Of a stretch of DNA of 64,000 nt, positions 2,186 through 27,205 are shown piece by piece. Position numbers and translations under genes: made by a program. Position 1 is the stretch's first letter; each line of letters starts with the position of its first letter. Location: the NCBI GenBank assembly GCA_038064475.1, contig JBBTTA010000003.1, positions 24,985 through 88,984 on the forward strand, read 5' to 3'. The notes under the pieces were generated by a model. The model ran no database searches. It was given only the letters and a program-made list of their open reading frames with translations, and had not been told where the DNA came from. The stretch comes from Patescibacteria group bacterium (lineage in GTDB: Bacteria > Patescibacteriota > Minisyncoccia > Phycocordibacterales > EsbW-18).

Positions 2186-2345
2186 GTTTGTTAAATAAAA
2201 AAACGGCTAACAAAACCGTTTGGCCCTTTGACGGGACAGAGTAGATCGACCCCTCGGCCGGCTTGTGAATTAAGACCTTTCGATCGCCAGCTGTCTACGG
2301 TTCTGTAACGACTATACTACCCGAAAACCCGCCTAGGTCAAGGCA
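2186..2345 (-). promoter_or_regulatory. Possible rplJ 5' leader (L10-leader-like autoregulatory region), not structurally verified
   Basis: About 160 nt untranslated region upstream of rplJ containing hairpin-forming segments; only its position supports this. Confidence 0.2.
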
Positions 2346-3484: not shown

Positions 3485-3512
3485 TCTGTTCTCTGTTCTC
3501 TGTTCTCTGTTC
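3485..3512. repeat. Heptanucleotide tandem repeat (tctgttc)x4 between the surface-protein stop and capA start
   Basis: Four perfect units read directly, flanked by partial units. Confidence 0.9.
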
Positions 3513-6346
3513 TAGATTTCCCTGATGTCCGGTGATCCCTTCTCCGAATCATCGAGAACACTTGTGCAGTGAATATCCCCGCCGGCGCCTGGGGCATAGT
3601 CGATACCACCGTCACCGTCATTATCGAACCCGTCTGAACATTCAGTGACATCGCCCCCTGTGTCGTCATCCCCTTGTTCGTTATCGTCCAGCGCATCATC
3701 ACAGTGTGGATCATCGTCATTGTCTCCATCAATACCGTTTACACCATCCCAATCAACAAAGGTATCTGCATCATTGTCAGTACCGTCATTACACTGTGGT
3801 GCATTTACAAGAATCGTTACACTGTCACTCACATCGCCACTTTTATCTCCAGCTTCACACGTAATAGTGAATGTTGTATCACTTGAAAGCACTCCGGAAT
3901 CTTCTCCTTTCCCGCTATCATCACGACTTCCTGACCATGGAGGAATACCTTCGCTTGCTACACACGTTCCAGATGTAATTTCATTTGATTCCCATGTAAG
4001 TTCAACAACCGAATCAGTCCCTACAGGAGTTGGGTTGTCTGATCCATTGATCTTAAGATCAACTTCTGGTCCTCCAGGTGGAGGTGGTGGTGGCTCGGCA
4101 GTATAGGTAATCGTGTAGGAGATTGTTCCTCCACAATCAAGTGCTTGCGACGATGCTGGTGCAATTGATGGAGGAAGGTAGCCCTCGAGCGTTGGCACAT
4201 TTGAAAGAGTATAGTTACCTGCAAGTTGATCTGTGTATGTCTCTGAACTTTGGTTTATGTTTTCAGTAATCGTTCCACTTGGTCCAGACAATGACCATGT
4301 TGTTGGCACGTTTGATGACACAACAACTGTTCCCGCAGAACATGCTGGTTCTTCTTCTTCCACAGTAACGTAACAATTTGATGAGACGAGTGCATCACTA
4401 CCGACGTTCACTGTCTTCGTTCCTGTAGCAGAATATGAAACGGTAAATGAGGCCCCTGATCCGCTTGCAGGTGTTCCTCCAATTGCTGACCATGCATATG
4501 TGCTGTTTCCTCCTCGCGCCGTAAGCGTAACTGGTTGATTAACACCTACGGGTGGCTGACCGGCAGGCAAACATTCTGGACGAACACGTACCAGCACATT
4601 ATCGTTTACCCCCTGTACTGGTGGACCATTGCGTATGGCGTCACCAAAATAGTTGCGTCGAACAGTTGCTGCTGACACGTTTTGTGTTCCACTGTCTGCA
4701 ATTACTGCTACCCCCCAAAGTGTGTCGTTAGGGCTTGCTCCTTTACTTCGTGTTGTATCTGCACCCGAAGATGTCCACGATAGTGTTGGCACAACACCGT
4801 AGTTCACGAGAATTGATGTGCCATTGTACGCAACACCCGGAGCACTTGCACCAAGTTGGAATGTAAGAGGTGGTGGACCCGATGTAATGTTTATCGTACA
4901 TGCACCCGTCGCACCTGTGTCCGTGCGCGTAAAGGTGACCGTACGTGATCCTGTTGTTGTAAATGTTTTAGTGACAGATGATGCAGAACCGCTTGAGCCT
5001 GATGGTAAAATACCTGTCGTCGGAGAAATTGCCCATGTATGTGCCGCACCGCCGCTTGCTGTGAATGTCACACTATCTACATCTTCTTGTGCCGCTGTCG
5101 GGCCAGAGCATGTTACGTCTGTTGCGGGACAGGTGAGTGATTGTGGATTGTTCGAAAAAGCAACCCATTCATTCGTGTCTCCTTGTACTTCACCTGTAAT
5201 GCTATGAGCTACTCCTGTTGAAACAAGGCCAGCAAGGCTCGATGAGAATGTACATGATGCACCAACACAACCCGTTGCACCAGCTGTTGTTGATTTTACA
5301 AGTGTTCCATCAGAATAAATTCGAATCGGACGTGGTGCTGTTGTATCAACATCATCACCCCAACCAGTTACGGTACAATTTGCAAATGGTGGTGTGAATG
5401 CGCCTGTTGGCAAATCCCCCCCTCCAACCTCCACATTACACGTACTTGATTGTCCGTTCCGTGTCACTGTAACAACTTTTGTTCCTATTGTTGAATACGA
5501 AGTTGTACATGTTCCTCCTGTTGCACATGAACCTCCCCCCCCTGTATTCCATGTGTAGTACGGAGACGTTCCTCCGCTTCCTCCTGATGCTGTCACAACT
5601 GTATTTTGATCAGGGTTAACCAGAGAAGGGTTTGCTGAACATGATAGTGCTGATGGAGCCGTCACATTCACCGTAACGCTTTTATTCACCGTACCCCCAG
5701 GGCCTGTACATGACATTGAAAATGTCGTTGCGGTAGTGAGATCACTTGATGCATCGTTTCCTCCTGTTGCACTTCCTGTTGAAAACCCCGCACCCCCCGT
5801 TGCTGTACATGATGTTGTGTTTGTTGATGTCCACGTTAACGTTGTTGGTGTGTCTGATGTTACAGGGTTTGGAGACGCTGTAAGTGTTGCTGTTGGTGCG
5901 GGAGGGGCTGTAACAGTAACATTCACGGTCACTGAACCCCCTCCTTCAGGTGATGGATCTTCGACACAGTCACGATCAACACCGATAGCAAAGAGTGTGT
6001 CGGTTGTTAACACATCCGTTGTATACGAAAGCGTTCCAGGGTTTGTTGTGTACGTCAGTGTATGCCCAACAGGGTATGTGCGAGAGATATTGTATGGCGT
6101 AGCACCCGTACTCGAGTTGGTGAACGTGACAGGAAGTGTTGATCCTGATGATACGGCGATTGAATACACCGCATCGCGATTTCCTGCGCTGTTGGCATAC
6201 GTCGTCCCATTGATTGTCATACTCATGATAGGGACCGCCATTCCTGAACATACCTCTAGGGCACGTGCCGTGTTTGGGACCGCCATCCACACAAGTGCCA
6301 AAAGCGTACCGATACCAAGTAACGAATTTCGTACAATAGATTTCAT
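3512..6346 (-). CDS. Large secreted repetitive surface protein (944 aa), Thr/Ser/Gly-rich Ig-like repeats, C-terminal Asp-rich Cys-containing Ca-binding-like tail
   Basis: N-terminal signal peptide MKSIVRNSLLGIGTLLALVWMAVPNTARA; long low-complexity body; C-terminus CNDGTDNDADTFVDWDGVNGIDGDNDDD...CSDGFDNDGDGGIDY. Confidence 0.75.
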   Translation of the reverse strand: MKSIVRNSLLGIGTLLALVWMAVPNTARALEVCSGMAVPIMSMTINGTTYANSAGNRDAVYSIAVSSGSTLPVTFTNSSTGATPYNISRTYPVGHTLTYTTNPGTLSYTTDVLTTDTLFAIGVDRDCVEDPSPEGGGSVTVNVTVTAPPAPTATLTASPNPVTSDTPTTLTWTSTNTTSCTATGGAGFSTGSATGGNDASSDLTTATTFSMSCTGPGGTVNKSVTVNVTAPSALSCSANPSLVNPDQNTVVTASGGSGGTSPYYTWNTGGGGSCATGGTCTTSYSTIGTKVVTVTRNGQSSTCNVEVGGGDLPTGAFTPPFANCTVTGWGDDVDTTAPRPIRIYSDGTLVKSTTAGATGCVGASCTFSSSLAGLVSTGVAHSITGEVQGDTNEWVAFSNNPQSLTCPATDVTCSGPTAAQEDVDSVTFTASGGAAHTWAISPTTGILPSGSSGSASSVTKTFTTTGSRTVTFTRTDTGATGACTINITSGPPPLTFQLGASAPGVAYNGTSILVNYGVVPTLSWTSSGADTTRSKGASPNDTLWGVAVIADSGTQNVSAATVRRNYFGDAIRNGPPVQGVNDNVLVRVRPECLPAGQPPVGVNQPVTLTARGGNSTYAWSAIGGTPASGSGASFTVSYSATGTKTVNVGSDALVSSNCYVTVEEEEPACSAGTVVVSSNVPTTWSLSGPSGTITENINQSSETYTDQLAGNYTLSNVPTLEGYLPPSIAPASSQALDCGGTISYTITYTAEPPPPPPGGPEVDLKINGSDNPTPVGTDSVVELTWESNEITSGTCVASEGIPPWSGSRDDSGKGEDSGVLSSDTTFTITCEAGDKSGDVSDSVTILVNAPQCNDGTDNDADTFVDWDGVNGIDGDNDDDPHCDDALDDNEQGDDDTGGDVTECSDGFDNDGDGGIDYAPGAGGDIHCTSVLDDSEKGSPDIREI

Positions 6347-6536
6347 GGGACGTATAAATAGTTATAAACTCCTTTCAGTATAGTGCTAGACGAACCAAAA
6401 AATAAGAAGGTTATGCACATCCCATTGGAGGTGCAAAAAATTGCCCTACATTTTCGATGTCCTCTAACGGGACAGGGCAAAAAGAAAAGGCGCCCCGTGA
6501 AGAGACGCCTTGTATTGAAAAAAGAAGAGCTAGAGG

Positions 6537-7712
6537 TTAGTTGCAAGGAAATGCGGTGATGTCGCCGATCTGACCGAAGTTCAGGTCGAAGTTGGTGTAC
6601 CCCGTAACTTCCTGAGTCAGTGTATCGCGAATCGTAAGTGTGAAGCCAACGTTCGTGGTTGTTCCGTAGAACACCCAGAAGTAGCTGTTGAGTTCACACC
6701 CATTGATGATCTTCACCAACATCTCCTTATTGCTTTCCGTGAAGAAAGAGAAGAGACCGGATTCGGTCGAACCAGGAATAGCGCTCGGCGTTCCGAAGCC
6801 CGAACGACCGCCCCCCAACACTGTGTTGTACTCGACCTGGAGCTCAAAACGCTTGTCTAGAGAATTGTTGGAACTGTCGAGGCACATCACCGTATTGCTT
6901 GGAACGCAGGGCCCCAGAGGTGCGTCCATCTCGGCCGCAGCCAGAGGCGCTGCAACCTGAAGGACGAGCGTTGCCTGCTGGTTCGGACCAACGAGCTCAA
7001 TGTCGTTGTAGAAGACACCGGGCCCCGTAACTCGCTCCGCACTGTACCAACCGCACGGAGACGACTGCGTCATGTAGGCGGCAAAACCATCGCCACCACC
7101 GTCAGGGCACACATACATCGCGCGGTTGTTTTCGAGTCCTTCCGGCGGCGTCAGTGCTGTCTCTTCCTCGTGGTCGAGACAAACCGTGTGGAACAGTTCG
7201 TGAGCGTAAAGCCCTCCCAGAACAGCCCGACGAACTGTTGCATAAGGTCCACAGAGCATTGCACCACCACCGGTTGGGTATTCATCAACGACGAGTACTA
7301 CACGGTCAGCACCGTATTGGGCTCGAAGCGGATCCAGAATACTATAATCCATCGGAAACACGGGATCTTGCGACCAACGCACGACACCAACCTTCGGAAA
7401 GGTCAGCCAATTGTTGTTCGAGTTGTGGAGAATCTGATGCAGTCGCGCATCAGCGAGCTCAAGCTCGCCCATGAACGACGCCGTCGATTCAGCCGACCAC
7501 GAGTTCGGATACACCACGAGGGTGTCCACCCGAGTCGCTGTCGGAACCGTCATCTCGAAAACGCTGTTGTTCTCCTGGAGTCGCCGAAGCTCGACCAAGA
7601 GAGGAACGTTCTCGTCACGAATCACCTGATCCGTGAACTGGATGTTGGACGCCGCCAAAGGAGCGGCGAACAGGATGAGAGCCACGAGCGCAAAACGCTT
7701 GCTGATGTTCAT
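6537..7712 (-). CDS. Secreted zinc metalloprotease, metzincin-like (HELFHTVCLDH)
   Basis: Signal peptide MNISKRFALVALILFAAPLAAS; HExxHxxxxxH motif; GC content clearly higher than flanking genes. Confidence 0.7.
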   Translation of the reverse strand: MNISKRFALVALILFAAPLAASNIQFTDQVIRDENVPLLVELRRLQENNSVFEMTVPTATRVDTLVVYPNSWSAESTASFMGELELADARLHQILHNSNNNWLTFPKVGVVRWSQDPVFPMDYSILDPLRAQYGADRVVLVVDEYPTGGGAMLCGPYATVRRAVLGGLYAHELFHTVCLDHEEETALTPPEGLENNRAMYVCPDGGGDGFAAYMTQSSPCGWYSAERVTGPGVFYNDIELVGPNQQATLVLQVAAPLAAAEMDAPLGPCVPSNTVMCLDSSNNSLDKRFELQVEYNTVLGGGRSGFGTPSAIPGSTESGLFSFFTESNKEMLVKIINGCELNSYFWVFYGTTTNVGFTLTIRDTLTQEVTGYTNFDLNFGQIGDITAFPCN

Positions 7713-8090
7713 CGCTTTTCCTTTCTGCCGTCAATGTGGCGGCGCTTGTCCTCCGTAGCTTTACGCGTAGGAGGAATAGGTATTTCGGTTGAACAACTAT
7801 AATTGCATTTCAAGGTTTTGACCTTGAAAACTAAGCTCTTCTTGTAAAAGAACTACCCATACCTAGTATAGTCACTGGGCAGAAGAAAAGTACCTCCTGT
7901 CAAGGTTTTCTGTACTAACCTGTGGACAATTTCTACGGGTTAAAACAAGGCCTAGTAAAGAGCCAAAATGAGGCTCGAGGAGGAGAATCCCCTTCTATTC
8001 CCCAACGTACCACGTCTTCCCAACCCCGTCAATGAAAACCAGTCTCTTGGGGGGTCTCTTACCTATCTCCCATCTTCCATACTCTATCTT

Positions 8091-8669
8091 CTATTGAGTC
8101 ACCGGCATTGTGTATGCAACCTCAACAACTGCTTTACCGCTCTGTTGCAATGTAAGTGTTATGTTTACTGTCTCTCCATTACGCTGTGCAGAGAAGTTTG
8201 TGACAGGAAGTTCATCAATTGATCCGTCTTTCAATACAACCCATCCCCCGTCAACCAAAAGTCGGCGGTAGCCATCAACAACCTCATGAAATTCAAGTGT
8301 CGACATGTAGCGCGCGACGGGCATCTGTTCACCGCGACCTGTGTATGCGATTGAGTAGCTTGTTTCTATTGCTGCACTTGGTTCAAGGAGTAATTCTTGT
8401 GGAAATCCCGCAACAAGTGAGCCTGCAGGTGCATGCGTAATCGCATTCCCCTCCTCGTCATACGTTACCCCATCGTCTTTCCCTTTACCTAAAAACCAAA
8501 GGGCTCCGACAATGAGAAGAATAATGACAATAATACTCACTAATACAGATGAGCTTTTTCGATGAGACTCTGGAGCCATTCCCCCGCCCATTGGTGTCGT
8601 GGTATTCATGCCTCCGTCTGTAAGAGGTGTCGTCATTGGACTTGTGTGGCGCATGTCTTGCATTCCCAT
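8091..8669 (-). CDS. Hypothetical membrane-anchored protein
   Basis: 192 aa, TM segment VLVSIIVIILLIVGALWFL, no recognisable domain. Confidence 0.55.
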   Translation of the reverse strand: MGMQDMRHTSPMTTPLTDGGMNTTTPMGGGMAPESHRKSSSVLVSIIVIILLIVGALWFLGKGKDDGVTYDEEGNAITHAPAGSLVAGFPQELLLEPSAAIETSYSIAYTGRGEQMPVARYMSTLEFHEVVDGYRRLLVDGGWVVLKDGSIDELPVTNFSAQRNGETVNITLTLQQSGKAVVEVAYTMPVTQ

Positions 8670-8902
8670 ATATAAAAAGTGTTAGTAGTAGCTAGTATGA
8701 ATGGTAGCGGAATGTATCCCCCCAAACAACGCATTTTGTTGATAACTATTAGTACCGCAGTGTGACTTAAGTGGTTCATTGACAAAAAACTCTAGGGAAG
8801 TACTGTGGTTCTAGAAATGGTTCTCTGTCAGAAATCCTCATATTCGCGGGACATACTGTTTCGCGAAAAAGCGCCAACGGCGCAGAAGGAAGGAGTCCCA
8901 AA

Positions 8903-9124
8903 ATGAAGTTCGCACGACTGGAGTTCCGTGTCACCGACGAGCAGTTCAAGATCTCGTCCTACTCCGACCCGGGCGGCATCATCAAGACCTGTGTCGCGCT
9001 GGCCCGCACCCCCGAGGGCGTGGCGGTGCGTCACAGCACCGACCCCGACAAGAAGACGCTGTTCTTCAGCAACGACGAATGGACCGCCTTCACCCAGGGT
9101 GTCCGCGCCGGCGAGTTCGGCTGA
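8903..9124 (+). CDS. DUF397 domain protein (actinobacterial type)
   Basis: 73 aa; SSYSDPGG...CVALA...VRHSTDPDKKTLFFSNDEWTAFTQGVRAGEFG matches the DUF397 pattern; very GC-rich with a GGAAGGAG RBS 7 nt upstream. Confidence 0.75.
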   Translation: MKFARLEFRVTDEQFKISSYSDPGGIIKTCVALARTPEGVAVRHSTDPDKKTLFFSNDEWTAFTQGVRAGEFG

Positions 9125-9140
9125 TTTCGGCCCGAAGGCC

Positions 9141-9172
9141 CAGGGGGAAGCGCCCACACGCTCCCCCTTTTT
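9141..9172 (+). terminator. Rho-independent terminator after the DUF397 gene
   Basis: agggggaagcgcccacacgctccccc followed by ttttta. Confidence 0.6.
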
Positions 9173-9178
9173 ATTTTC

Positions 9179-9679
9179 ATGAAAAACATTGCATACATTA
9201 TTCCTGGATACGGAGAAAACTGTAACCTAAAACGCTACCAGGCTCTTTCGTCTATGCTCAAAACAAAAGGGTACACTGTAAAACCAGTAAATCCTGACTG
9301 GAAAAAACCACTTTCAAAACAATCTTTTCGAGTTCCAAAAAATGCCCTCGTAATCGGTTTTTCATTTGGTGCCATAATTGCATATCTTATTGCAGAAAAA
9401 TACACTTTCACAAAAGCAATCTTAGCTTCTCTATCCCCTCTCAATACCTACCCAAAGAAAACTATCATCAAGTATTTTTCAAAAGAGATTGGCCAAAAGA
9501 AAGCAATTGTATATGCCACAGACCTAAAAAAAATAAAAATCTCGCTAAAAAACCTATCCACCCCAACCATTACTCTTGCTGGAGAGTTAGAAAAAGGAAT
9601 GTCGGCCGACTTTCTCGTTCCAAAAACAAACCATATGATGACAAAGACGTATATCAACGCAATTGCAAAGCTAGTCTAA
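9179..9679 (+). CDS. Alpha/beta-hydrolase-like protein (GFSFG nucleophile elbow)
   Basis: 166 aa, GxSxG motif VIGFSFGAIIAY. Confidence 0.5.
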   Translation: MKNIAYIIPGYGENCNLKRYQALSSMLKTKGYTVKPVNPDWKKPLSKQSFRVPKNALVIGFSFGAIIAYLIAEKYTFTKAILASLSPLNTYPKKTIIKYFSKEIGQKKAIVYATDLKKIKISLKNLSTPTITLAGELEKGMSADFLVPKTNHMMTKTYINAIAKLV

Positions 9680-9807
9680 TCCTCAACTTGACATCTTCTC
9701 GTGCTTCGGTATACTTATAGTCACGAATACGGTTGATGAGAGGACTGCTCCGAAAGAGCGGTCCTCTTTCTTAAAAGCCCCAGCCGGTATCGATAACACA
9801 TACACCT

Positions 9808-11163
9808 ATGCCCTTCGATTTGAAAGCACTGAACGTTGTCTTGGAAGAACTCGAGAATGAACGCGGTATCTCAAAAGAAAAAACAATTGAAGCGATTGAA
9901 CACGCGCTTGCAACTGCATACAAAAAAGAATTTGGAAAACGCGATCAAGTTATTCGCGCGCATTTTGATATGAATGTCGGCACAACAGAATTCGAACAAG
10001 TAAAAACAGTTGTTGATGAAACAACAGTTCGCTTCAAAGAAGAAGGTGAGGAAGAAATCGAAACGAACGAAGGGCACATGCGACACAACGACACGATGTC
10101 AGAAGACGTTAGTGAAGATGGTGAAGTTCGTCTTCCACTCTTCTCTCCTGAAAAACACATGTTGCTTGCCGACGCACAAAAAATTAAGAAGGGTGCTGTT
10201 GTTGGAGATGAACTCATCTTCCCTCTCGACACAAAAGAAGATTTCGGACGCATTGCTGCGCAAACTGCAAAGCAGATGGTGATTCAAAAAATTCGCGAAG
10301 CAGAAAAAGAACACTTGTCGAAAGAATTCGGTGAGCGCGAAGGAGAAATTGTGTCAGGTACCGTGCAACGCATCGAGCGCGGAAATATTTTCGTTGACCT
10401 CGGACGTGCAGTTGGTGTGCTCGCATACGACGAACAAATCCCCGGCGAACGGTACCGTGCAGGTGAACGCATTCGCGCATACCTCTACCGCGTCGAAGAA
10501 TCTGCACGTGGCGTGTTCTTGCGTCTCTCACGATCACATCCAAACTTCCTCGTTCGTCTCTTTGAAAACGAATCCCCTGAAGTTGCACAAGGCACCGTTG
10601 AATTGAAAGCGATCGCACGTGAACCAGGTTCACGATCAAAAGTTGCGGTCTTCTCAAACGACTCACACGTTGATCCTGTTGGCGCACTCGTTGGTCAGCG
10701 TGGCGTACGCGTTTCAACCGTAATGTCAGAGTTGGGTGGAGAAAAAATTGACGTCATCGAATGGTCAGAAAATCCTGAACACTTTATTGAAGACGCACTC
10801 TCACCTGCAAAGATTATTTCTGTCGATATCACCGACGAAGAAGCACATCAAGCAGTCGTGCGCGTAACCGATGATCAGCAATCACTCGCAATCGGCCGCG
10901 GCGGACAAAACGTCCGCCTTGCCGCAAAACTCACCGGCTGGCGCATCGATATTCAGTCGACCAGCACAGCTGAAGGTGCTGAAAGTACACCCGTTGAGGC
11001 CTCTTCACCTGAAACAGAAATAGTGACAGAACCCGCCGAAGAAACTCCAACGGTATCAGCAGATCCAGAAACAGCTCCAGTGGCTGATGAAACACCAAAA
11101 GAAGAATCAACTCCTAGTGAAACAGGCAAACCAGCAACTTCAGAGGAGATAAAATTTAAATAA
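9808..11163 (+). CDS. nusA: Transcription termination/antitermination factor NusA
   Basis: 451 aa; N-terminal NusA domain, S1 domain (GEIVSGTVQRIERGNIFVDLG), KH domains (LVGQRGVRVS...IDVIEW), acidic C-terminal extension. Confidence 0.95.
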   Translation: MPFDLKALNVVLEELENERGISKEKTIEAIEHALATAYKKEFGKRDQVIRAHFDMNVGTTEFEQVKTVVDETTVRFKEEGEEEIETNEGHMRHNDTMSEDVSEDGEVRLPLFSPEKHMLLADAQKIKKGAVVGDELIFPLDTKEDFGRIAAQTAKQMVIQKIREAEKEHLSKEFGEREGEIVSGTVQRIERGNIFVDLGRAVGVLAYDEQIPGERYRAGERIRAYLYRVEESARGVFLRLSRSHPNFLVRLFENESPEVAQGTVELKAIAREPGSRSKVAVFSNDSHVDPVGALVGQRGVRVSTVMSELGGEKIDVIEWSENPEHFIEDALSPAKIISVDITDEEAHQAVVRVTDDQQSLAIGRGGQNVRLAAKLTGWRIDIQSTSTAEGAESTPVEASSPETEIVTEPAEETPTVSADPETAPVADETPKEESTPSETGKPATSEEIKFK

Positions 11164-11196
11164 AATCTTTCCTTGACTTACTAACTTCTACTTTAC

Positions 11197-11730
11197 ATGA
11201 ATTTGTGGCATGACGTCTCAACAGGAGACAATACACCGGACGAGGTGAACATTGTTGTTGAAATCAACAAAGGTTCAAAGAACAAATACGAAATCGACAA
11301 AACAACGGGACTCATCGCGCTTGATCGCGTGATGCACACGTCACAAGACTATCCTTTCGATTACGGTTTTGTTCCTCGCTCATACTGGCACGACAAAGAC
11401 CCTCTCGATGTGGTGGTGTTGACGACGCATCCATTGATGCCCGGTATCCTCGCTACGGTCCGTCCTGTCGCCATCATGAACATGCTCGACAACAATCAAG
11501 GCGACGACAAACTCATCTGCGTTCCTGTTGATGATCCTCGCTTTGAACACGTGCACGATCTCAAGGACATCCACAAACACACACTCAAAGAAATAGAGCA
11601 TTTCTTTTCAACGTATAAGAAAATTCAGAATAAGCCAGTTGAGGTGACTGGTTTCAAGGGTGTTATTGAGGCGAAGACCGCTCTCAACGAAGCGCTTGCG
11701 CTCTACAAAAAAGAATTTCCAAAAGCATAG
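11197..11730 (+). CDS. ppa: Inorganic pyrophosphatase (family I)
   Basis: 177 aa; VVEINKGSKNKYEID...DYGFVP...DPLDVVVL signature. Confidence 0.9.
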   Translation: MNLWHDVSTGDNTPDEVNIVVEINKGSKNKYEIDKTTGLIALDRVMHTSQDYPFDYGFVPRSYWHDKDPLDVVVLTTHPLMPGILATVRPVAIMNMLDNNQGDDKLICVPVDDPRFEHVHDLKDIHKHTLKEIEHFFSTYKKIQNKPVEVTGFKGVIEAKTALNEALALYKKEFPKA

Positions 11731-11866
11731 CTACAGAGCCACCGTGCACAAAAACACCCTGCATGAAGCGGGGTGTTTTTGTACTCCAGAGACATGCCTC
11801 ACGTAACCTTCACTTTTGCTACGTTCATATATACAATGTTTCCATACCAATATAATCATTACGTCT

Positions 11867-12469
11867 ATGAAAAAAGTATTACTTCTTATTGTCGGACTCG
11901 CACTTGTTACACCATTGGTGTTTGCTCGCGCGGAGGATGATGCAACAAGTTCATCAGTGTGGTCATCTGTTCGCAAAGCAAAAGATGTGAGCGCAGAAAT
12001 GCAAAAGCGTCAGGACCTCATGAAAGAAAACATAGAGGAACGCCGCGCAGAGTGGACAGAAAAGAAAGATGCAATACGAGAAGCCGCAGGTGTATTTATT
12101 TTCCGTATCAAAGCACACTTCGGTTGGGCAATTGAGTGGTTGCAAAACATTCACGACCGCATGCTTGCACAAGTTGAAAAGATTGAAGACGAAACAGATG
12201 CAGATCTCTCTATTGCAAAAGAACACCTCGATGATGCACAGACGCACATCAATGACGCCGCTGACGCCCTTGAAGATATTATCGTAATTGCTGATGAGGA
12301 CGATGAAGCAACAACAACCGTGAAAGACAAGGTTGCTGGCGTTCGTGCCCAATTTGCAACGGTAAAAGAGCACATCCAAGCTGCGCGCGAATCACTCCGC
12401 CTCGCAATGCAGGAGATTAAGGCAAACTGGCCAAAGAAAGATAGCGAAAGTGACGAAGATAGTGAATAA
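11867..12469 (+). CDS. Secreted coiled-coil hypothetical protein
   Basis: Start at MKKVLLLIVGLALVTPLVFARA signal peptide (ATG 11867); rest charged/helical. Confidence 0.55.
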   Translation: MKKVLLLIVGLALVTPLVFARAEDDATSSSVWSSVRKAKDVSAEMQKRQDLMKENIEERRAEWTEKKDAIREAAGVFIFRIKAHFGWAIEWLQNIHDRMLAQVEKIEDETDADLSIAKEHLDDAQTHINDAADALEDIIVIADEDDEATTTVKDKVAGVRAQFATVKEHIQAARESLRLAMQEIKANWPKKDSESDEDSE

Positions 12470-12503
12470 TACTAGTACCTTTACCCACTAATTAACTAGC
12501 AGT

Positions 12504-12743
12504 ATGGAAATGGAAACAAACATAATACAGCAACCAGCATCAAACAACGGTCCAGTTGTTGGAATCATTGTTGTGATTATCGTGCTTTTGGTTGGTGCAT
12601 TCTACTACTTCGGCGCACTCCGCCAGCCAATGTTGCCTGTTGAAGAAACAGCGACGACAACCGATGATTCTCTCGAGACAATCGAAGCTGATCTCGAATC
12701 AGGAGATCTCGACAATATCGACGCAGAGTTGAACGCGTACTAA
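12504..12743 (+). CDS. Small single-TM membrane protein
   Basis: 79 aa, TM VVGIIVVIIVLLVGAFYYFGAL, acidic tail. Confidence 0.5.
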   Translation: MEMETNIIQQPASNNGPVVGIIVVIIVLLVGAFYYFGALRQPMLPVEETATTTDDSLETIEADLESGDLDNIDAELNAY

Positions 12744-12762
12744 ACAAAAACGGTTCGCATCA

Positions 12763-12790
12763 AAAAATCCCGCCTCATGCGGGATTTTTT
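12763..12790 (+). terminator. Rho-independent (bidirectional) terminator
   Basis: aaaaaatcccgc-ctcat-gcgggatttttt. Confidence 0.75.
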
Positions 12791-12817
12791 GATGCTTATT
12801 TTCCAAACGCTTGTCGC

Positions 12818-13912
12818 ATGCTACACTCTCCGCACATGACAAAAGCAAACATCACCACAAACAACAATGCAACGGTAACTATTGAAGGCGAGCTCCCACA
12901 CGAAGCCCTCAAAAAGCACCGTGCCGCATCCCTAAAACACTTGGGAAGTAAGGTTAAAATCGATGGTTTTCGTGAAGGTCACATCCCTGAAAACATCCTT
13001 ATTGACCGCATTGGCGAATACACCCTCCTCCAAGAAATGGCCGAGCGAGCACTTTCTGAGCACTATCCCCTTCTTCTTGTTGAACATAAGATTGATGCAA
13101 TCGGCCGCCCTGATATTTCAGTAACAAAACTCGCAGCAGGAAATCCTCTTGGTTTCAAAATTACAACAGCAGTCATGCCTGTCGTTGAACTTCCCGACTA
13201 CGCAACGCTTGCAAAAGATGCAGCAAAGAAAATTGGAAATGAACCTGATCTCGTGACTGAAGAAGATATCGATAAAGTTGTCGGACAACTTCTAGCAGAG
13301 AAACAAAAAGCAGAATCAGAAAAAACAAATCCGCCAGCTGGCGGACAGAAAACAGAAAACAAAGAAGAACTTACAAAAATGACTGATGATGTCGCAAAAA
13401 CATTTGGTCCTTTTGAAAACGTTCAACAGCTTCGTGCAAAAATCCGCGAAGGAATGGAGGCCGACAAAAAACGTCAACACATTGAGAAAAAGCGCGTGGA
13501 AATCATGGAGGTAATCATGAATGAGACAAAAGTTGTCATTCCTGACGTTCTTATTGATGCGGAGTTAAACAAACTCATGGCACAAATCTCACACGACGTT
13601 GAACACATGGGTATGAAACATGAAGACTACCTCAAAGCGATCGGAAAAACTGATGAGGATTTGCGCAAAGAATTTCGTCCCGACGCAGAGAAGCGCGCGA
13701 AAAGTCAGCTTGTCTTGAATGCGATTGCGTCAAAAGAAAATATTAAACCAGATCAAAAAGAGTTGGACCACGAAGTTGAACACCTTTTGTCACACCACAT
13801 GCCAAAGGGCGCTTCCGTTGGTGAACGTGAACGACAATCAGCAACCATTTACGTTGAAACACTCATGACAAATCAGAAAGTCTTGGAATTTTTAGAAAAA
13901 CAAGGAATGTAA
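12818..13912 (+). CDS. tig: Trigger factor
   Basis: 364 aa, N-terminal ribosome-binding domain with GFREGHIPENIL; directly upstream of clpP (conserved tig-clpP synteny). True start may be the internal Met at 12836. Confidence 0.8.
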   Translation: MLHSPHMTKANITTNNNATVTIEGELPHEALKKHRAASLKHLGSKVKIDGFREGHIPENILIDRIGEYTLLQEMAERALSEHYPLLLVEHKIDAIGRPDISVTKLAAGNPLGFKITTAVMPVVELPDYATLAKDAAKKIGNEPDLVTEEDIDKVVGQLLAEKQKAESEKTNPPAGGQKTENKEELTKMTDDVAKTFGPFENVQQLRAKIREGMEADKKRQHIEKKRVEIMEVIMNETKVVIPDVLIDAELNKLMAQISHDVEHMGMKHEDYLKAIGKTDEDLRKEFRPDAEKRAKSQLVLNAIASKENIKPDQKELDHEVEHLLSHHMPKGASVGERERQSATIYVETLMTNQKVLEFLEKQGM

Positions 13913-13919
13913 GTCTCTC

Positions 13920-13980
13920 GTGTTAAACACTCAGTGTTTAACACGGTTGTTATTCTCTAATTCGTGCGAATTAGAGAATA
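13920..13980. repeat. Two adjacent perfect palindromes (gtgttaaacac-tca-gtgtttaacac; tattctctaattcg-tg-cgaattagagaata)
   Basis: Read directly; the first is a family member of the palindromes at 3450..3470 and 39065..39089 (shared core acactcNgtgt). Confidence 0.8.
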
Positions 13981-13989
13981 GTTGAGAAG

Positions 13990-14018
13990 TTGAAACTAAA
14001 GAAAATCTGGCGTACAAT
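13990..14018 (+). promoter_or_regulatory. Candidate sigma70-type promoter for clpP (TTGAAA-17nt-TACAAT)
   Basis: -35 ttgaaa at 13990..13995 and -10 tacaat at 14013..14018 with 17-nt spacing, about 50 nt before the clpP start. Confidence 0.4.
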
Positions 14019-14068
14019 GGTCTAAATTACAAGCTTGATTCGTGATTCTTAATTCTTGCTTCTATTCT

Positions 14069-14665
14069 ATGCTTATCCCAACAGTTATTGAGAAGTCCAC
14101 GTACGGAGAGCGCGCATATGACATTTACTCGCGCCTTTTGAAGGACCGCATTGTTTTCCTTGGCGGCTCAATTGATGACCACTCGGCAAATATCATCATT
14201 GCCCAGCTCCTTCACCTTGAATCACAAGACCCTGATAAAGATATTTCTCTCTACGTTAACTCTCCAGGTGGCTCTATTTCAGCAGGACTTGCCATTATTG
14301 ATGCAATGAACCACATCAAACCAGCTGTTTCTACGGTCTGTGTTGGTATTGCCGCTTCAATGGGTGCATGGATTTTGGCCGCAGGTGAGAAAGGAAAGCG
14401 TTTTGCCCTTCCCAATGCCGAGGTCATGATTCACCAACCTCTCGCATTCGGTGTTGAAGGTCAGGCAACAGATATTGCCATCAGCGCAGAGCACATCATC
14501 AAACTTAAGAAACAAATGGTTAAAATCTTGGCGGAGACAACAGGTCAGAGTGAAGAAAAGATCCAAAAAGACGTTGATCGAGACTTCTATCTCTCGGCTG
14601 AAGAAGCCAAGAAATACGGTGTCATTGACGAAGTAATGACGAAAAAGGGTCAAAAGAAGAAATAG
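14069..14665 (+). CDS. clpP: ATP-dependent Clp protease proteolytic subunit
   Basis: Start at [24 protein letters not shown] (canonical ClpP N-terminus); catalytic Ser (GIAASMGA) and His (IHQPL) motifs. Confidence 0.95.
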
Positions 14666-14668
14666 CAC

Positions 14669-14698
14669 AAAAAACCTCGCCGAAAGCGAGGTTTTTTG
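14669..14698 (+). terminator. Rho-independent terminator after clpP
   Basis: aaaaaacctcgc-cgaaa-gcgaggtttttt. Confidence 0.75.
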
Positions 14699-14898
14699 TG
14701 CGTTCCCTTGCCCTATTCTTCTCGAAAGCGTATGATGAGAACATTAGTACTTAGAGAACGCCGAACACTTGAACGAAACGAAAGGACACACCGTACTATG
14801 ATTTCCTCATCAACAATTGCTAAAACGCTTTTACACTCGCACGATTTTTGTCGTTTGGAACCATAGACATTTCAAGTGACGGCGGTTAATGAAACCGT

Positions 14899-16428
14899 AT
14901 GTCATTACAACTAGCATTCTTCCTCCTCGCAGTCACAGGAGTCGTTGGTGTTGGTTTGGGTTACTTCATCCGTTACCTCGTCGGACTTGGTAAGCGTGGA
15001 TCTGTCGAACTCGAAATCAAACGAAAACTTCTTGAGACACAGGAACAAGCAAATAAAATAATTCAGCAGGCAGAAGAAGAGGCGGCACAGACGATAGAGA
15101 TAGGTCGCGAAGAGTTGCGCGAACGCGAAGAGAAGGCCCTTAAGACAGAAGAACGCCTCATTAAAAAGGAGGAGCTTTTGGATAATCGTCAGCAAGACAT
15201 CGACGCGTCTGCAGAAGAACTGAAAGAAAAGGCTGAAGATATTGAAACACTTCGCGAAGATACCGAACACGTGAAGGCACAACACGAAGAGGCACTCGTG
15301 CGTGTTGCTCGTCTCACTGAAAACGAAGCACGTGAGATGTTGTTGCGTGAAATTGAAAAGAAACACGGAGAAGATCTCGTCATGCGCATGCGCAAACTTG
15401 AAGTTGGTGGCCGTGAACAACTTGAAAAGAAAGCGCAGGATATTCTGGTGACTTCAATTCACCGACTCGGCAACAATGTGTCATCAGACATCATGTCGTC
15501 GACAATCGAACTCCCTTCTGAAGACGTCAAAGGAAAGATCATCGGAAAGGAAGGACGCAACATCAAAGCGTTCGAGCGCGCATCAGGTGTTGAAGTGGTT
15601 ATCGACGATACACCAGGCTCAATTATTCTTTCCTCATTTGATCCTGTGCGTCGTGCAGTTGCCAAAATGGCCTTGGAGCGCCTCATAAAAGACGGGCGCA
15701 TCCAACCAGCGCGTATTGAAGAAGAAGTTGAAAAGTCACGTCAGGAAATCAATAACATCATTAAAGAAAAGGGTGAGCAAGCAGCGTACGAAGCTGGTGT
15801 GTTCAATCTTGATCCACGCATCATTTCAATTCTTGGACGACTTCACTTCCGTACAAGCTACGGACAAAACGTTCTCGCCCATTCGGTTGAGATGGCGCAT
15901 CTTGCCGGCATGCTTGCAGAAGAACTCGGAGGTGATGTTGCTATTGCGAAAGCAGGAGCACTCGTGCACGACATCGGAAAAGCAGTTGATCACGAAATTC
16001 AAGGCACACATGTTGAAATCGGACGTCGCATCTTGCAAAAGTTTGGTGCTGACGAGAGCATAGTGAAAGCGATGCAAGCGCATCACGAAGAATATCCGTA
16101 CGAAACAATTGAATCGATTATCGTGCAGGTTGCTGATGCTGTGTCAGGTTCTCGCCCCGGTGCACGACGTGACACCGTTGAAAACTACTTGAAACGCTTG
16201 GCTGACCTTGAAAATATTGCGAACTCATTTGAAGGCGTTGATAAGTCATACGCCATTCAAGCAGGACGTGAAATTCGTATCTTTGTTCGCCCAGAACAAG
16301 TGACTGACATCGAGGCACAAAAACTTGCGCGCGATATTGCAGGAAAGATTGAAGCGGAATTAAAATATCCGGGAGAAATAAAAGTAAACGTCATCAGAGA
16401 AAACAGAGTGATAGAGTACGCGCGATAA
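14899..16428 (+). CDS. rny: Ribonuclease Y
   Basis: 509 aa; N-terminal TM helix, coiled-coil, KH domain (GKIIGKEGRNIKAFE), HD domain (HSVEMAHLAG...LVHDIGKA). Confidence 0.9.
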   Translation: MSLQLAFFLLAVTGVVGVGLGYFIRYLVGLGKRGSVELEIKRKLLETQEQANKIIQQAEEEAAQTIEIGREELREREEKALKTEERLIKKEELLDNRQQDIDASAEELKEKAEDIETLREDTEHVKAQHEEALVRVARLTENEAREMLLREIEKKHGEDLVMRMRKLEVGGREQLEKKAQDILVTSIHRLGNNVSSDIMSSTIELPSEDVKGKIIGKEGRNIKAFERASGVEVVIDDTPGSIILSSFDPVRRAVAKMALERLIKDGRIQPARIEEEVEKSRQEINNIIKEKGEQAAYEAGVFNLDPRIISILGRLHFRTSYGQNVLAHSVEMAHLAGMLAEELGGDVAIAKAGALVHDIGKAVDHEIQGTHVEIGRRILQKFGADESIVKAMQAHHEEYPYETIESIIVQVADAVSGSRPGARRDTVENYLKRLADLENIANSFEGVDKSYAIQAGREIRIFVRPEQVTDIEAQKLARDIAGKIEAELKYPGEIKVNVIRENRVIEYAR

Positions 16429-24270: not shown

Positions 24271-25185
24271 TTAATTCGAACGCTTCCCGTGGAAATTCTT
24301 GTGTACTTCTTTCAAGTGCCTATCAGTCACGTGCGTATATATCTGTGTCGTGGCGATATTGGCATGTCCCAAAAGCGCCTGAACGCTTCTGATATCTGCA
24401 CCGTTGCCCAAAAGGTCGGTTGCGAACGAATGACGAATGATATGCGGTGTCACTTTTTTGCTGATACCTGCTTTAATCGCGTACTGCTTCACCAAGCGTT
24501 CAACCGAGCGGGGAGTGAGGCGCAAATCTGAGGAATTTTTCGCATTTTTGCCAAGTTGTGCGAATAACGCATCATCGGTATCCGCTCGTTTGTCCAGATA
24601 TTTCTTTACCGAAGTTTTAGCCACATCTGATACGAACACAACACGCACTTTGTCGCCCTTTCCGCGCACCGAAAACTCCCCGCGTGAGAAATCGATGTCG
24701 CGCGACAGAGACACAATCTCTGATACACGCATGCCTGTTGAGAAAAGAAGTTCGAGAAGCGCTTTGTCGCGAAGGGATTGAACATCTTCACCTGACGGCT
24801 GTGCGAGTAGTCGATCAAGGTCTGTGTGTGAGATAAGATCGAGATCTCGATCACCGGTTTTCGCGAGTTCAATAACTTCAGGTTGTACAGTCTTGATATT
24901 TTTTTTACGAAGATATTTGAGAAATGCTCGAAGCGCAATCAAATAATAGTTTTGTGTTTTCTTTTTGAGCGTATTGTCTGTTGTCTGTTGTCTGTTATTT
25001 GTTGTCTGTCTATTAAGCCACAAACGGTAGTCGCGAATAATTGATTCTGTAATGTCCGTTGGGGAAGAGATTTTCGCGTATTCAAAAAAGCGCGTAAGGT
25101 AGCGGTCGTAATTTTCGATCGTCTTAATCGAGCGTCCGCGTTCGATTTCGAGATATTCTAGAAACTCTCTTTTGTACTTTTCCAT
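24271..25185 (-). CDS. Tyrosine site-specific recombinase, XerC/XerD type
   Basis: Start at MEKYKREFLEYLEIERGRSIKTIENYDRYL; catalytic region RHSFATDLL...LLGHANIATTQIYTHV. Contains an in-frame heptamer repeat (see 24974..25008). Confidence 0.8.
   Translation of the reverse strand: MEKYKREFLEYLEIERGRSIKTIENYDRYLTRFFEYAKISSPTDITESIIRDYRLWLNRQTTNNRQQTTDNTLKKKTQNYYLIALRAFLKYLRKKNIKTVQPEVIELAKTGDRDLDLISHTDLDRLLAQPSGEDVQSLRDKALLELLFSTGMRVSEIVSLSRDIDFSRGEFSVRGKGDKVRVVFVSDVAKTSVKKYLDKRADTDDALFAQLGKNAKNSSDLRLTPRSVERLVKQYAIKAGISKKVTPHIIRHSFATDLLGNGADIRSVQALLGHANIATTQIYTHVTDRHLKEVHKNFHGKRSN
24974..25008. repeat. Heptanucleotide tandem repeat (ttgtctg x4 plus variant ttatttg) inside the recombinase CDS
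   Basis: Read directly; encodes QTTNNRQQTTDN linker on the minus strand. Confidence 0.9.
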
Positions 25186-25355
25186 GTTTGTTTGCCCGAG
25201 TGGCACTTGGAAGCTTCGCTTCCAAGTGTGTGCCGACACTACTTGCTTCGCAAGATCTGTCCGCACTATATATTGTGCGACGCTTCCTTTACTTTCACAA
25301 ACAATTCCTGTATAAAACCTACAGAAGGTCTACTCAGCCCGAAAAGGAGAAACGT

Positions 25356-26172: not shown

Positions 26173-26736
26173 ATGAGTATCATTAAACACAAAGCACAGC
26201 GTGTCGCTGTCTATATCGACACACAAAACTTGTATCACAGTGCGCGCAATCTCTACGGAGCACGCGCAAACTTTGATGCAATCGTTAAAAATGCAATCGG
26301 AGATCGAAGTCTCGTGCGCGCAGTTGCGTACGTGATTTCAACAGAATCCGGTGAAGAAAAAACATTCTTTGAAGCACTTGAAAAAATGGGAATTGAAGCA
26401 AAGACAAAAGACCTTCAAATTTTTGCTGGTGGTGCAAAGAAAGCAGACTGGGATGTGGGGCTCGCAATCGATGCGGTGCAATTGGCACCAAAGCTTGATG
26501 CAGTCGTTCTTATTTCAGGCGACGGTGATTTTATCCCGCTTGTAAGGTATTTGCAGATTAATGAAGGTTGTCAGGTTGAAGTTGTCGCTTTCGGGCGCTC
26601 AACATCATCGAACCTTATTGAAGCAGCAGATCACTTTACTGACTTGGATGAAAATCCTCGCGAATACCTTATCGGTAATCGTTCACAACGTGGACGTGGT
26701 CGCGGCGGAAAACCAAAACAAAATCCGACCGAATAA
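26173..26736 (+). CDS. NYN-domain (LabA-like) predicted nuclease
   Basis: RVAVYIDTQNLYHSARNLYG...DWDVGLAIDAV...VLISGDGDFIPLV pattern. Confidence 0.7.
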   Translation: MSIIKHKAQRVAVYIDTQNLYHSARNLYGARANFDAIVKNAIGDRSLVRAVAYVISTESGEEKTFFEALEKMGIEAKTKDLQIFAGGAKKADWDVGLAIDAVQLAPKLDAVVLISGDGDFIPLVRYLQINEGCQVEVVAFGRSTSSNLIEAADHFTDLDENPREYLIGNRSQRGRGRGGKPKQNPTE

Positions 26737-26775: not shown

Positions 26776-26818
26776 ATGTATGGTAGATACGGAAGGTCTC
26801 TTACAGAAAGGGGAAGTG

Positions 26819-27205
26819 ATGGACAGCCCACAGCCCTTGGTACGACAGAGGGTGCGGAGGGTTATCGTATACATCCTTTGTTTTCTGGTGTTTCTGATTC
26901 TTGTGAAGATGCTTATCGCAAAACCAAAGGAGTCAAAGAAAGCCTTCAAGGCTCCAGCACCCATCGTGGAACCAGTGCTCCTCGAGAACGAAGCCGTCGC
27001 ATTCACATGTGGTGTCTACAGCAGAAAGCTTGGTAGCGGAAAGAAGTATGTCCAGTTCGGAATCCTCGAACGGCTCACTTCGATGCCCGTTATCCGAGAG
27101 ACTTCTCGCCGACCTCTCGTGGGAGAGCAGGTGAAGGTCGAGTGGCATTCAAACCCCACCAAGGTCTGGGTTTCCATCGACTTCGACGAGTGCCCGCCAT
27201 TATGA
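26819..27205 (+). CDS. Hypothetical N-terminally anchored membrane protein (GC-elevated)
   Basis: 128 aa from ATG 26819 (RBS AGGGGAAG); TM VIVYILCFLVFLILVKMLIA. Confidence 0.5.
   Translation: MDSPQPLVRQRVRRVIVYILCFLVFLILVKMLIAKPKESKKAFKAPAPIVEPVLLENEAVAFTCGVYSRKLGSGKKYVQFGILERLTSMPVIRETSRRPLVGEQVKVEWHSNPTKVWVSIDFDECPPL

Follow-up and report, generated by a model that had tools for sequence, protein, structure and literature searches.

The window analysed here is a 64-kb stretch of a metagenome-assembled genome (MAG) labelled Patescibacteria group bacterium, with an overall GC content of 44.6%. At issue is a small, GC-rich DUF397 gene that is followed on the same strand by a hydrolase gene (Table 1). 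DUF397 has been described as actinobacteria-specific and linked to XRE regulators (PMC7159879, PMC10294661, PMC10364602), and no paper among those listed in our literature search joins it to Patescibacteria or the Candidate Phyla Radiation. We observed that the two genes, separated by an intrinsic terminator, form a previously undescribed module that recurs across Patescibacteria. Within this module, the DUF397 gene of the window appears, on balance, to be a horizontally replaced cassette. We regard this as the best reading of the locus because the gene combines a foreign composition with an independent mismatch to its neighbouring hydrolase.

A DUF397-terminator-hydrolase module in Patescibacteria

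The module consists of a DUF397 gene for ~70-80 amino acids (aa) with its own strong ribosome-binding site (RBS), an intrinsic terminator and, 0-30 nt further on, a gene for a hydrolase of ~165 aa. It was defined by a DUF397 gene, a hairpin with a T-run and a ~165-aa hydrolase carrying the GFSxGA motif, all on one strand and within ~110 nt. This arrangement is present in the window, where the spacer is 54 nt, and the identical layout is found in 11 other distinct loci. In loci L004-L009, L010-L013, L015-L017 and L019, the DUF397 gene is followed after 50-76 nt (50-105 nt by the wider count), on the same strand, by a hydrolase homologue of 160-193 aa. All readable spacers of pair loci (11/11) contain a GC-rich hairpin and a T-run, which end no more than ~30 nt before the hydrolase start.

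Retrieval with the hydrolase alone yielded 30 metagenome loci, 27 of them with enough upstream sequence, and a DUF397 gene lies directly upstream in 10 of these 27, two being 5'-truncated remnants. The remnants (L048:2835-2969 and L065:1674-1802) comprise the last ~35-40 residues and the terminator, sit directly upstream of the hydrolase and are evidence of decay or turnover at the DUF397 slot; the remnant of L048 still has a high GC content at third codon positions (GC3 0.68). Hydrolase genes without DUF397 (L042, L049, L057, L059, L066) also begin within ~25 nt of a terminator-like hairpin or T-run, and the stretch from the T-run to the start codon (TTTTTATTT..ATG) is common to the window and to L042, which lacks DUF397. 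It seems, then, that starting right behind a terminator belongs to the hydrolase gene as such. We found no relative in which the same flanks enclose an empty site: NusA is close by in L055 alone, differently arranged, and the 192-aa gene upstream in the window is not conserved with the upstream gene of L010.

As a separate observation, two loci carry a ~270-bp GC-rich stretch directly upstream of a hydrolase that lacks DUF397 (L045:1750-2023 and L046:2730-3000). It is strongly structured (-53 kcal/mol over 160 nt), apparently non-coding, and might represent either the decayed remains of a cassette or an RNA of unknown kind. Rfam gave no match at the DUF397 locus of the window or at L014, L045 or L072.

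An earlier, sequence-only reading of this stretch had found no XRE/DUF5753 regulator beside the DUF397 gene and had regarded the gene as partnerless. The first part stands, as a profile of eight actinobacterial partners detected no XRE/DUF5753 gene in the 64-kb window (best E 1.6; its own partners score 1e-96 to 1e-134), and the helix-turn-helix (HTH) protein of L055 used as a query gave no match there. Orphan status does not, in view of the conserved hydrolase directly downstream. The L055 query is a small XRE-family HTH_3 gene (L055:300-524, 75 aa, E = 1.7e-14) that lies 315 bp upstream of DUF397 and hydrolase. L055 is the only one of ~15 Patescibacteria-type loci with a small HTH_3 gene nearby, and this gene possibly connects the module with the XRE association seen in Actinobacteria.

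Composition and signals of the DUF397 gene

The DUF397 protein of the window matches PF04149 with 48.8 bits (E = 8.2e-13; Pfam cut-off 24) over profile positions 5-55 of 55 and carries 13 of the 13 invariant residues of our family alignment (A1). Two motifs are conserved in DUF397 proteins, namely CxE in strand 2 and RDS ending strand 3 (Kaur et al. 2020, PMC7159879). The invariant cysteine of the first motif, C30, is present in the window protein, but the motif reads C-V-A and has no Glu; at that place, Patescibacteria-type members have E, A, M, L or Q. The second motif retains R43 and S45, with D replaced by H (VRHS), as in Nocardiopsis proteins.

The gene has a GC content of 0.640 (0.554, 0.473 and 0.892 at the three codon positions, against 0.446 for the window). 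Only 0.1% of the 222-bp windows of the 64 kb reach this value, and the maximum of 0.676 falls at the DUF397 gene. From its amino acids and the codon usage of the window, a GC3 of 0.35 +/- 0.055 would be expected; the observed 0.90 corresponds to z = 10.1, where the 44 reference genes of the window have z-scores with a standard deviation of 1.9 and a maximum of 4.2. Its codon choice is that of a high-GC gene (GAC 5/5, GAG 4/5, GGC 5/6, AAG 5/5, CTG 3/3), with C at 70% and G at 22% of four-fold sites. Measured against the native rplL, rplJ, tig and clpP genes, its codon adaptation index (CAI) is 0.455 (z = -2.7), below all 40 other window genes tested. The gene uses CTG, ACC and GGC, codons that the native highly expressed genes avoid; CTG serves every Leu and never occurs in the reference set.

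The compositional island is narrow. In a 30-bp profile, GC climbs from 0.40-0.43 to 0.67 at 8870 and is down to 0.20 at 9170. The island is limited to ~8870-9170 and comprises the DUF397 coding sequence (CDS) and its terminator. The 5' flank holds a palindrome (8856-8871) and a hairpin, GCGCC-AAC-GGCGC (8871-8883), followed by the Shine-Dalgarno sequence AAGGAG (8890-8895), 7 nt ahead of the ATG. Downstream, the terminator comprises the hairpin GGCC-CGAA-GGCC (9129-9140), a second hairpin (9142-9168) and a T-run (9168-9177), and the spacer as a whole folds at -24.1 kcal/mol (RNAfold). The hydrolase ATG starts 1 nt past the T-run. The earlier description of an intact GC-rich gene with high-GC codon choice, a strong RBS and a terminator of its own is thus confirmed, and the windowed GC and codon-usage profiles place the gene as atypical, rather than typical, of its genome.

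Ancestry of the DUF397 protein

Relatives were sought exhaustively with HMMER among 1.84 billion cluster representatives and also by a word-indexed search. HMMER yielded 479 of them at E <= 1e-3, whose identity nowhere exceeds 59%; the word-indexed search gave the closest one, P0002, at 66%. Identities to the window protein are 62% for L019, 59% for P0014, 58% for P0018 and 53% for P0017. Wherever a name or a genomic context could be had, these nearest proteins are from Patescibacteria. P0017 is labelled Candidatus Paceibacterota and P0037 Candidatus Niyogibacteria; L019 comes from an unclassified MAG with 42.5% GC, and the contigs L004-L017 are low in GC and have the gene content typical of small genomes. 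The Patescibacteria-type matches reach 59-66% over almost the full length, whereas the best actinobacterial ones reach 45-52% over residues 15-72. Overall, the actinobacterial matches (Nocardiopsis, Actinomadura, Kibdelosporangium, Streptomyces) have 38-52% identity and start only at about residue 15.

Three traits mark the Patescibacteria-type proteins, and the window protein has all of them: an extra N-terminal strand FxVxDxxF, F for W before xxSS, and K(K/T)TLFF. In neighbour-joining (NJ) bootstraps of the full-length protein, its sister was exclusively Patescibacteria-type in 186/200 replicates and actinobacterial in 0/200. The window protein groups with L072 and L014, and next with L019, L010 and L058. 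By these comparisons, we assign the protein to a Patescibacteria-type clade and not to the actinobacterial XRE-linked type, contrary to the earlier description of it as actinobacterial. The C-terminal peptide TQGVRAGEF and the VAVRHS motif are common to the window protein and to Nocardiopsis and other actinobacterial proteins; the likeness in TQGVRAGEF is compatible with K-to-R/A drift under GC pressure. Proteins of the same F-type with GC-rich amino-acid composition exist, for example P0030 (54%), and none is near enough for a donor.

A mosaic origin, with an N-terminal half of Patescibacteria type and a C-terminal half of actinobacterial type, was considered and rejected. When the halves were analysed separately, the sister was Patescibacteria-type in 192/200 bootstraps for the N-terminal half and still in 147/200 for the C-terminal half.

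Other collections added little. In phage and plasmid collections, the only DUF397 genes are distant actinobacterial ones, with at most 52% identity over partial length. A PDB sequence search with the DUF397 family and a PADLOC search gave no match, and PHROGs has only one DUF397-like family, phrog_10815, of unassigned function. Exact-sequence look-ups of the window DUF397 protein, of P0169 and of the upstream 192-aa protein returned no record. At NCBI, the exact DUF397 protein and the protease-like protein described below are on record, both from a 105.5-kb contig of a 'Patescibacteria group bacterium' MAG.

The partner hydrolase

The gene behind the terminator is native in composition (GC 36%, GC3 0.34, GC3 z = -1.0, CAI z = 0.0). 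Its product has a nucleophile elbow, G60-F-S62-F-G64, and a putative catalytic triad of S62, E138 and H152; among the 21-22 members of the family, G60, F61, S62, G64 and H152 are invariant and E138 is found in at least 90%. The order of the triad is canonical, with positions predicted to follow strands beta5, beta7 and beta8 in the secondary structure of the AlphaFold2 model, which has a predicted local distance difference test score (pLDDT) of 93.7. Foldseek against the PDB returned 101 matches at E <= 1e-3, all of them alpha/beta hydrolases with template modelling (TM) scores of 0.65-0.70, including esterases and thioesterases such as ABHD10, Est1E, cinnamoyl esterases, TesA and BioH. PF12146 is matched by 15/22 family members, the window hydrolase itself remaining below the Pfam threshold, and homologues of ~165 aa carry the source label alpha/beta hydrolase. 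There are weak profile matches to 2xmz, YdeN and RBBP9, and three homologues weakly match a Tle1-like phospholipase domain of type VI secretion systems (T6SS; E = 3e-4). No signal peptide and no effector domain is present in the window hydrolase sequence.

Compared with minimal alpha/beta hydrolases and esterases (the YdeN/RBBP9 Ser_hydrolase family, UPF0227, TesA-type thioesterases, cinnamoyl and feruloyl esterases), the protein has the same core, GxSxG elbow and Ser/His/acid order. It differs in being only ~165 aa without lid or cap, and the link to DUF397 is specific to its family. Two further observations concern the hydrolase genes. L058 has three tandem paralogues (1577-2056, 2977-3501, 3532-4020), with DUF397 upstream of the first only. 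In all pair loci the hydrolase genes are richer in A and T at third positions than the rest of the locus (for example GC3 0.22 vs 0.43 in L019 and 0.20 vs 0.33 in L010), the opposite of DUF397.

A mismatched pair

Across the 11 other pair loci, the pairwise identities of DUF397 proteins follow those of their hydrolases (Spearman 0.80, p = 4e-13); for pairs involving the window, rho is -0.61. This co-divergence is compatible with a physical interaction of the two proteins and equally with simple co-inheritance. The pairs fall into type A (L044, L050, L051, L052, L054, L055), type B (L010, L019, L058) and type C (L004, L015). With type A, the window hydrolase shares 46-56% identity, against 29-38% with the other types. 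For the window DUF397 protein, identity is 40-49% with type A and 53-63% with types B and C, and it reaches 59-66% with the solo genes of L072 and L014. Judged by these identities, the hydrolase is of type A and the DUF397 protein is not, so it is not the cognate allele of its neighbour.

We propose that a cassette of ~330 bp, comprising RBS, open reading frame (ORF) and terminator stem (~8.85-9.17 kb), would have entered the locus through horizontal transfer or recombination, its source being unsampled and rich in GC3. It would either have displaced a cognate DUF397 gene or have occupied an empty slot. A repeat search found no terminal inverted repeats, attC sites or mobility genes flanking the cassette. 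The only flanking repeat is a 10-nt direct repeat of 90% identity (8869/9148), compatible with chance and no convincing target-site duplication, and the nearest integrase-family gene (24271..25266) is 15 kb away. The event resembles xenologous, or in situ, gene displacement, in which one gene of a module is replaced by a homologue of other ancestry and composition beside a native neighbour. It is unlike such cases in its unusually small unit and in having no flanking repeats, attC sites or mobility genes.

Weighing the origin of the cassette

Several points speak against a replaced cassette or limit it. No donor was found, with nothing above 66% identity among ~15 billion proteins, and synonymous sites compared with the nearest DUF397 relatives are at chance level. 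The pair mismatch rests on 12 loci and on short proteins, and 17/27 of the hydrolase-seeded loci are without DUF397. The search for an XRE partner covered 64 kb of the genome. The left junction (~8843-8870) lies outside the matching groundwater contig L018 (see below), which begins at 8857, and three of its five differences from the window cluster there, at 8864, 8865 and 8884. Interaction of DUF397 with the hydrolase, terminator read-through and expression levels are putative. Finally, the GC3 of DUF397 exceeds that of the other ORFs of its locus in 14/15 distinct loci (mean +0.185, Wilcoxon p = 6e-4), and part of the window signal may be a gene-specific bias rather than transfer.

This last point is the basis of an explanation without any transfer, in which the gene was inherited vertically and its GC3 was raised by a force specific to DUF397 across Patescibacteria, such as selection on the codons or mRNA of a short transcript with high expression, or GC-biased conversion at a hot spot of recombination. 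We consider it rather unlikely, although the excess is not confined to the window: DUF397 often has the highest GC3 of all ORFs in its locus, the type-A pairs that co-diverge with their hydrolase show it as well, and in the closest relatives, L072 and L014, GC3 is already 0.70-0.75. The narrowness of the island, limited to CDS and terminator, fits this explanation, as does the enrichment of C-ending codons over the adjacent hydrolase in the pooled other loci (TTC 0.61 vs 0.08, TAC 0.69 vs 0.18, ATC 0.49 vs 0.11, ACC 0.42 vs 0.10; third-position C 0.28 vs 0.09). Other findings count against it. The mismatch of pair types is peculiar to the window, the gene has the lowest CAI there when compared with native highly expressed genes, the ribosomal-protein genes on the same contigs are not GC3-rich (0.27-0.45), and a GC content of 0.514 at first and second codon positions, the highest of the clade, suggests long residence under GC pressure.

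The sequence-only reading had offered two other explanations, a very recent acquisition from a high-GC, Streptomyces-like donor and an assembly chimera. Direct and very recent transfer of an actinobacterial gene would account for the codon usage, which resembles that of a ~65-70% GC genome (GC3 0.89, with AAG, GAG and CTG throughout), and for the C-terminal peptides shared with Nocardiopsis and other actinobacterial proteins; moreover, some Patescibacteria live on Actinobacteria. We judge it very unlikely nonetheless. Actinobacterial proteins match less well and only from residue 15, they were never the sister group in the full-length bootstraps, and the N-terminal strand, the F-for-W exchange and KKTLFF are all Patescibacteria-type. 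The gene occupies the canonical slot of a Patescibacteria module, followed by a terminator spacer of Patescibacteria style, no XRE gene accompanied it, and the enrichment in A and the K-to-R changes can arise by convergence under GC pressure. A chimera, in which a high-GC fragment was mis-joined into a low-GC contig, is extremely unlikely. In its favour are the sharp compositional edges and the nature of L018, which has low coverage (4), ends at 8857 near the left edge and has three of the five mismatches in the 28 nt next to that end. The insert, however, is merely ~330 bp with the same low-GC genome on either side, its protein is Patescibacteria-type, and the gene stands exactly in the slot of a conserved module, in the correct orientation and with the usual terminator spacer. 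Furthermore, a separate assembly joins the identical gene to the hydrolase, NusA and the genes downstream.

That assembly is the Hainich groundwater contig Hain_H41_02um_R1_12243 (L018, ENA assembly ERZ1292633), which matches window positions 8857..15328 with five mismatches over 6472 bp. This contig carries the DUF397 CDS unchanged, together with the terminator, the hydrolase, NusA, a pyrophosphatase and trigger factor, and independently supports the right-hand junction of the cassette. One of the mismatches, a G-to-T change at window position 9206, converts hydrolase codon 10 from GGA to TGA; it represents either a true variant of the population, in which the hydrolase is inactivated, or an error of low coverage.

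For horizontal replacement as such, the foreign composition and the mismatch with the neighbour hold, and an actinobacterial, Streptomyces-type origin falls away. A 'very recent' date cannot be established from GC3, because a high GC3 marks the DUF397 genes of this clade in almost all of the genomes that were examined. The clade-wide excess is not explained well by either ordinary expression bias or slow amelioration after a single ancient transfer. Candidate causes are repeated exchange of cassettes, biased conversion at a site prone to recombination, and selection acting on a transcript that is short and abundant. Expression-linked codon bias was also considered as the sole cause for the window gene and rejected in view of its lowest CAI in the window and of ribosomal genes that are not GC3-rich. 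As a broader and rather speculative extension, which we think has a minor chance of being right, the DUF397 genes of Patescibacteria could be exchangeable mini-cassettes of RBS, ORF and terminator, repeatedly swapped, truncated or lost in front of a minimal serine hydrolase, their GC3 excess recording GC-rich import or biased conversion.

Proposed function of the pair

DUF397/BldB-type proteins of Streptomyces are small and oligomerising, work with partner proteins and are non-toxic on overexpression (PMC10294661, PMC10364602). By analogy with the BldB/Scr2-type proteins, DUF397 of the module would be a small protein-binding modulator. Because of the strong RBS, the short ORF, the terminator and the lack of room for a separate hydrolase promoter, DUF397 would be made in excess, and the hydrolase would be produced by read-through of the terminator. 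DUF397 may then tune or restrain the hydrolase or its pathway.

Alternatively, the pair might be a toxin-antidote or effector-immunity unit, in which a harmful esterase or lipase is held in check by DUF397 as a stoichiometric inhibitor made in excess; in a variant after Makarova 2009, DUF397 itself would be the toxin. The module is tightly linked, comprises two genes, and is patchy with variable neighbours, its internal terminator favours an excess of the upstream product, and the weak Tle1-like phospholipase matches of three homologues (E = 3e-4) point the same way. In addition, a toxin-antitoxin role has been predicted for XRE-DUF397 pairs (PMC2701414, cited in PMC7159879 and PMC10364602). 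We nevertheless hold this alternative to be quite unlikely, and weaker because most hydrolases (17/27) have no upstream DUF397, with two more preceded by truncated remnants only, and because the L018 hydrolase carries a nonsense codon (G9206T). PADLOC gave no match to the locus, the hydrolase has neither signal peptide nor effector domain, and 14 Streptomyces DUF397 proteins were harmless when overexpressed (PMC10364602).

Relation to known DUF397 systems

The closest described systems are the XRE-DUF397 pairs of Streptomyces (Scr1/Scr2 and WhiJ/BldB-type; PMC6262351, PMC10364602, PMC10294661). These have the same small, single-domain DUF397 protein (63-98 aa) with common core blocks (SSYS, CV.VA, VAVR.S and EW.AF..GV..GEF), and in both settings the gene adjoins a specific partner and presumably acts via protein-protein contacts. 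The Patescibacteria module differs in its host, as the literature has the domain as actinobacteria-only (PMC7159879), and in its partner, a downstream minimal alpha/beta hydrolase instead of an upstream XRE/DUF5753 regulator. A terminator parts the two genes, and each locus has a single DUF397 copy, not tens of paralogues. The protein itself differs by the extra N-terminal strand, by F for W and by a Glu of CxE that is not conserved (CVA in the window). The module also resembles the Xre-DUF397 system predicted as type II toxin-antitoxin by Makarova et al. 2009 (PMC2701414), in being a mobile-looking, patchy two-gene unit with variable neighbours. It is unlike that system in having no HTH antitoxin (a small HTH_3 gene is near 1 of ~15 loci, L055) and no overlap between its genes. 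For the Streptomyces pairs, a toxic action has been refuted.

A protease-like gene and its neighbour

The second gene that the sequence-only reading had singled out upstream, for an elevated GC content, a signal peptide and the motif HELFHTVCLDH, is borne out in these respects and lies on the minus strand. It has a GC content of 0.554 and a GC3 of 0.64 (z = 11.0), and its product combines a signal-peptide-like N-terminus with H170-E-L-F-H174-T-V-C-L-D179-H180. In an alignment of six homologues (A3), H170, E171, H174, D179, H180, E183 and six cysteines are invariant. The distant family members P0006 and P0008 have HEFGHLQGKDH, which is the canonical HExxHxxGxxH, with Cys in place of Gly in the subgroup of the window. 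Neither Pfam nor NCBIfam matched the window protein, and a PDB sequence search with the family gave no match; two of the six homologues have sub-threshold matches to Reprolysin_5 (E = 5.8e-4) and Reprolysin_3 (0.045). The AlphaFold2 model is poor (pLDDT 43, from a six-sequence alignment), and the invariant M198 and M213 are candidates for a Met-turn.

From its motif, the protein is plausibly a metzincin. It is like the metzincins (M12, reprolysin/astacin-like) in its HExxHxx(G/C)xxH motif with a third His and in being secreted and Cys-rich. It is unlike them in the Cys for the motif Gly, in having no Pfam, NCBIfam or PDB sequence match at threshold, and in an uncharacterised C-terminal beta-rich domain that is also found in proteins of 585-650 aa. 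The NCBI gene model AAB458_02335 (338 aa) starts past the conserved signal peptide, and the homologues favour the 391-aa ORF.

Orthologues with 60-64% identity by pairwise alignment are found in L001 and L003, and in both the protease gene is followed in the identical order by a surface-protein gene; the 944-aa protein of the window is 52% identical over its full length to the gene after the protease in L001. In L001 and L003 the protease genes have a GC3 of 0.54-0.64 against 0.28-0.36 for the neighbour, and the 944-aa gene of the window has 0.32. The fraction of identical codons at conserved residues is 0.45-0.51 (expected 0.38-0.40), similar for protease and neighbour, with synonymous sites near saturation. 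Because the orthologues in two other lineages keep both the neighbour and the GC contrast, the protease gene is not a recent import, as had been suggested; its raised GC3 is, by these comparisons, an old, gene-specific trait and not a sign of import or mis-joining. At its end, the 944-aa protein has Asp-rich repeats resembling DxDxDG and the C-terminal residues ...GSPDIREI. The orthologue of L001 keeps both, and the C-terminal peptide may serve as a signal for sorting or anchoring.

Table 1. Features of the DUF397 locus and its surroundings in the 64-kb window
Feature	Position	Strand	Basis
DUF397 gene, 73 aa, intact, Patescibacteria-type (F-type)	8903..9124	+	PF04149, composition, clade placement
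GC-rich 5' flank of the DUF397 cassette; approximate left limit of atypical composition	8843..8902	+	sequence, 30-bp GC profile
Intrinsic terminator between DUF397 and hydrolase; approximate right limit of atypical composition	9129..9177	+	RNAfold
Minimal lid-less alpha/beta hydrolase, 166 aa, DUF397 partner	9179..9679	+	family naming, invariant residues, AlphaFold2, Foldseek
Secreted Cys-rich zinc-metalloprotease-like protein, 391 aa, uncharacterised family	6537..7712	-	ORF, family alignment
Terminator-like hairpin after the protease-like gene	6487..6511	-	10-bp stem, then TTCTTTTT
Repetitive surface protein, 944 aa, weak PKD match	3512..6346	-	co-inherited with the protease-like gene

Other atypical features of the window

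A second small GC-rich cassette, at 63452..63688(-), encodes a 78-aa ORF (MEALVRQAPGLDVAGLHVK...) with 57% GC, GC3 0.66 (z = 5.1) and CAI z = -3.7. A Shine-Dalgarno sequence precedes it and a strong, GC-rich terminator follows. Directly downstream of it lies a PilB/T2SSE ATPase gene (61694..63373(-)), and neither Pfam nor PHROG gave a match. Atypical codons are also found in a 141-aa ORF at 26780..27205(+) (GC3 0.61, z = 6.2; no Pfam match), which adjoins an NYN-domain gene (26173..26736) and is 1.5 kb from a tyrosine recombinase of the Phage_integrase family, possibly XerC/D (24271..25266). Further features are a ribosomal protein L10 leader (RF00557, 46.9 bits) at 2189..2318(-), upstream of rplJ/rplL, and four tRNA genes at 17.9-20.5 kb.

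Implications

Two lessons concern annotation. A sharp GC island in a MAG need not mean a chimera, and 'orphan' calls based on the actinobacterial paradigm can overlook another conserved partner. If the cassette has been replaced as we propose, the window shows cleanly how one 330-bp cassette can be exchanged within a module that is otherwise stable. Should the DUF397 genes of Patescibacteria prove to be exchangeable mini-cassettes in general, any imports could come from the organisms that host these episymbionts. For an uncultured radiation, the locus would then offer a natural marker of gene flow or of host association, and a family regarded as actinobacteria-specific would gain a partner other than XRE. 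So far, DUF397/BldB-type proteins are known from Actinobacteria only, as companions of XRE regulators with an enigmatic biochemistry. The simpler context in Patescibacteria, with one DUF397 protein, one small enzyme and a terminator that would set their ratio, could make the function of DUF397 testable, and it raises the direct question of whether DUF397 binds and modulates the hydrolase.

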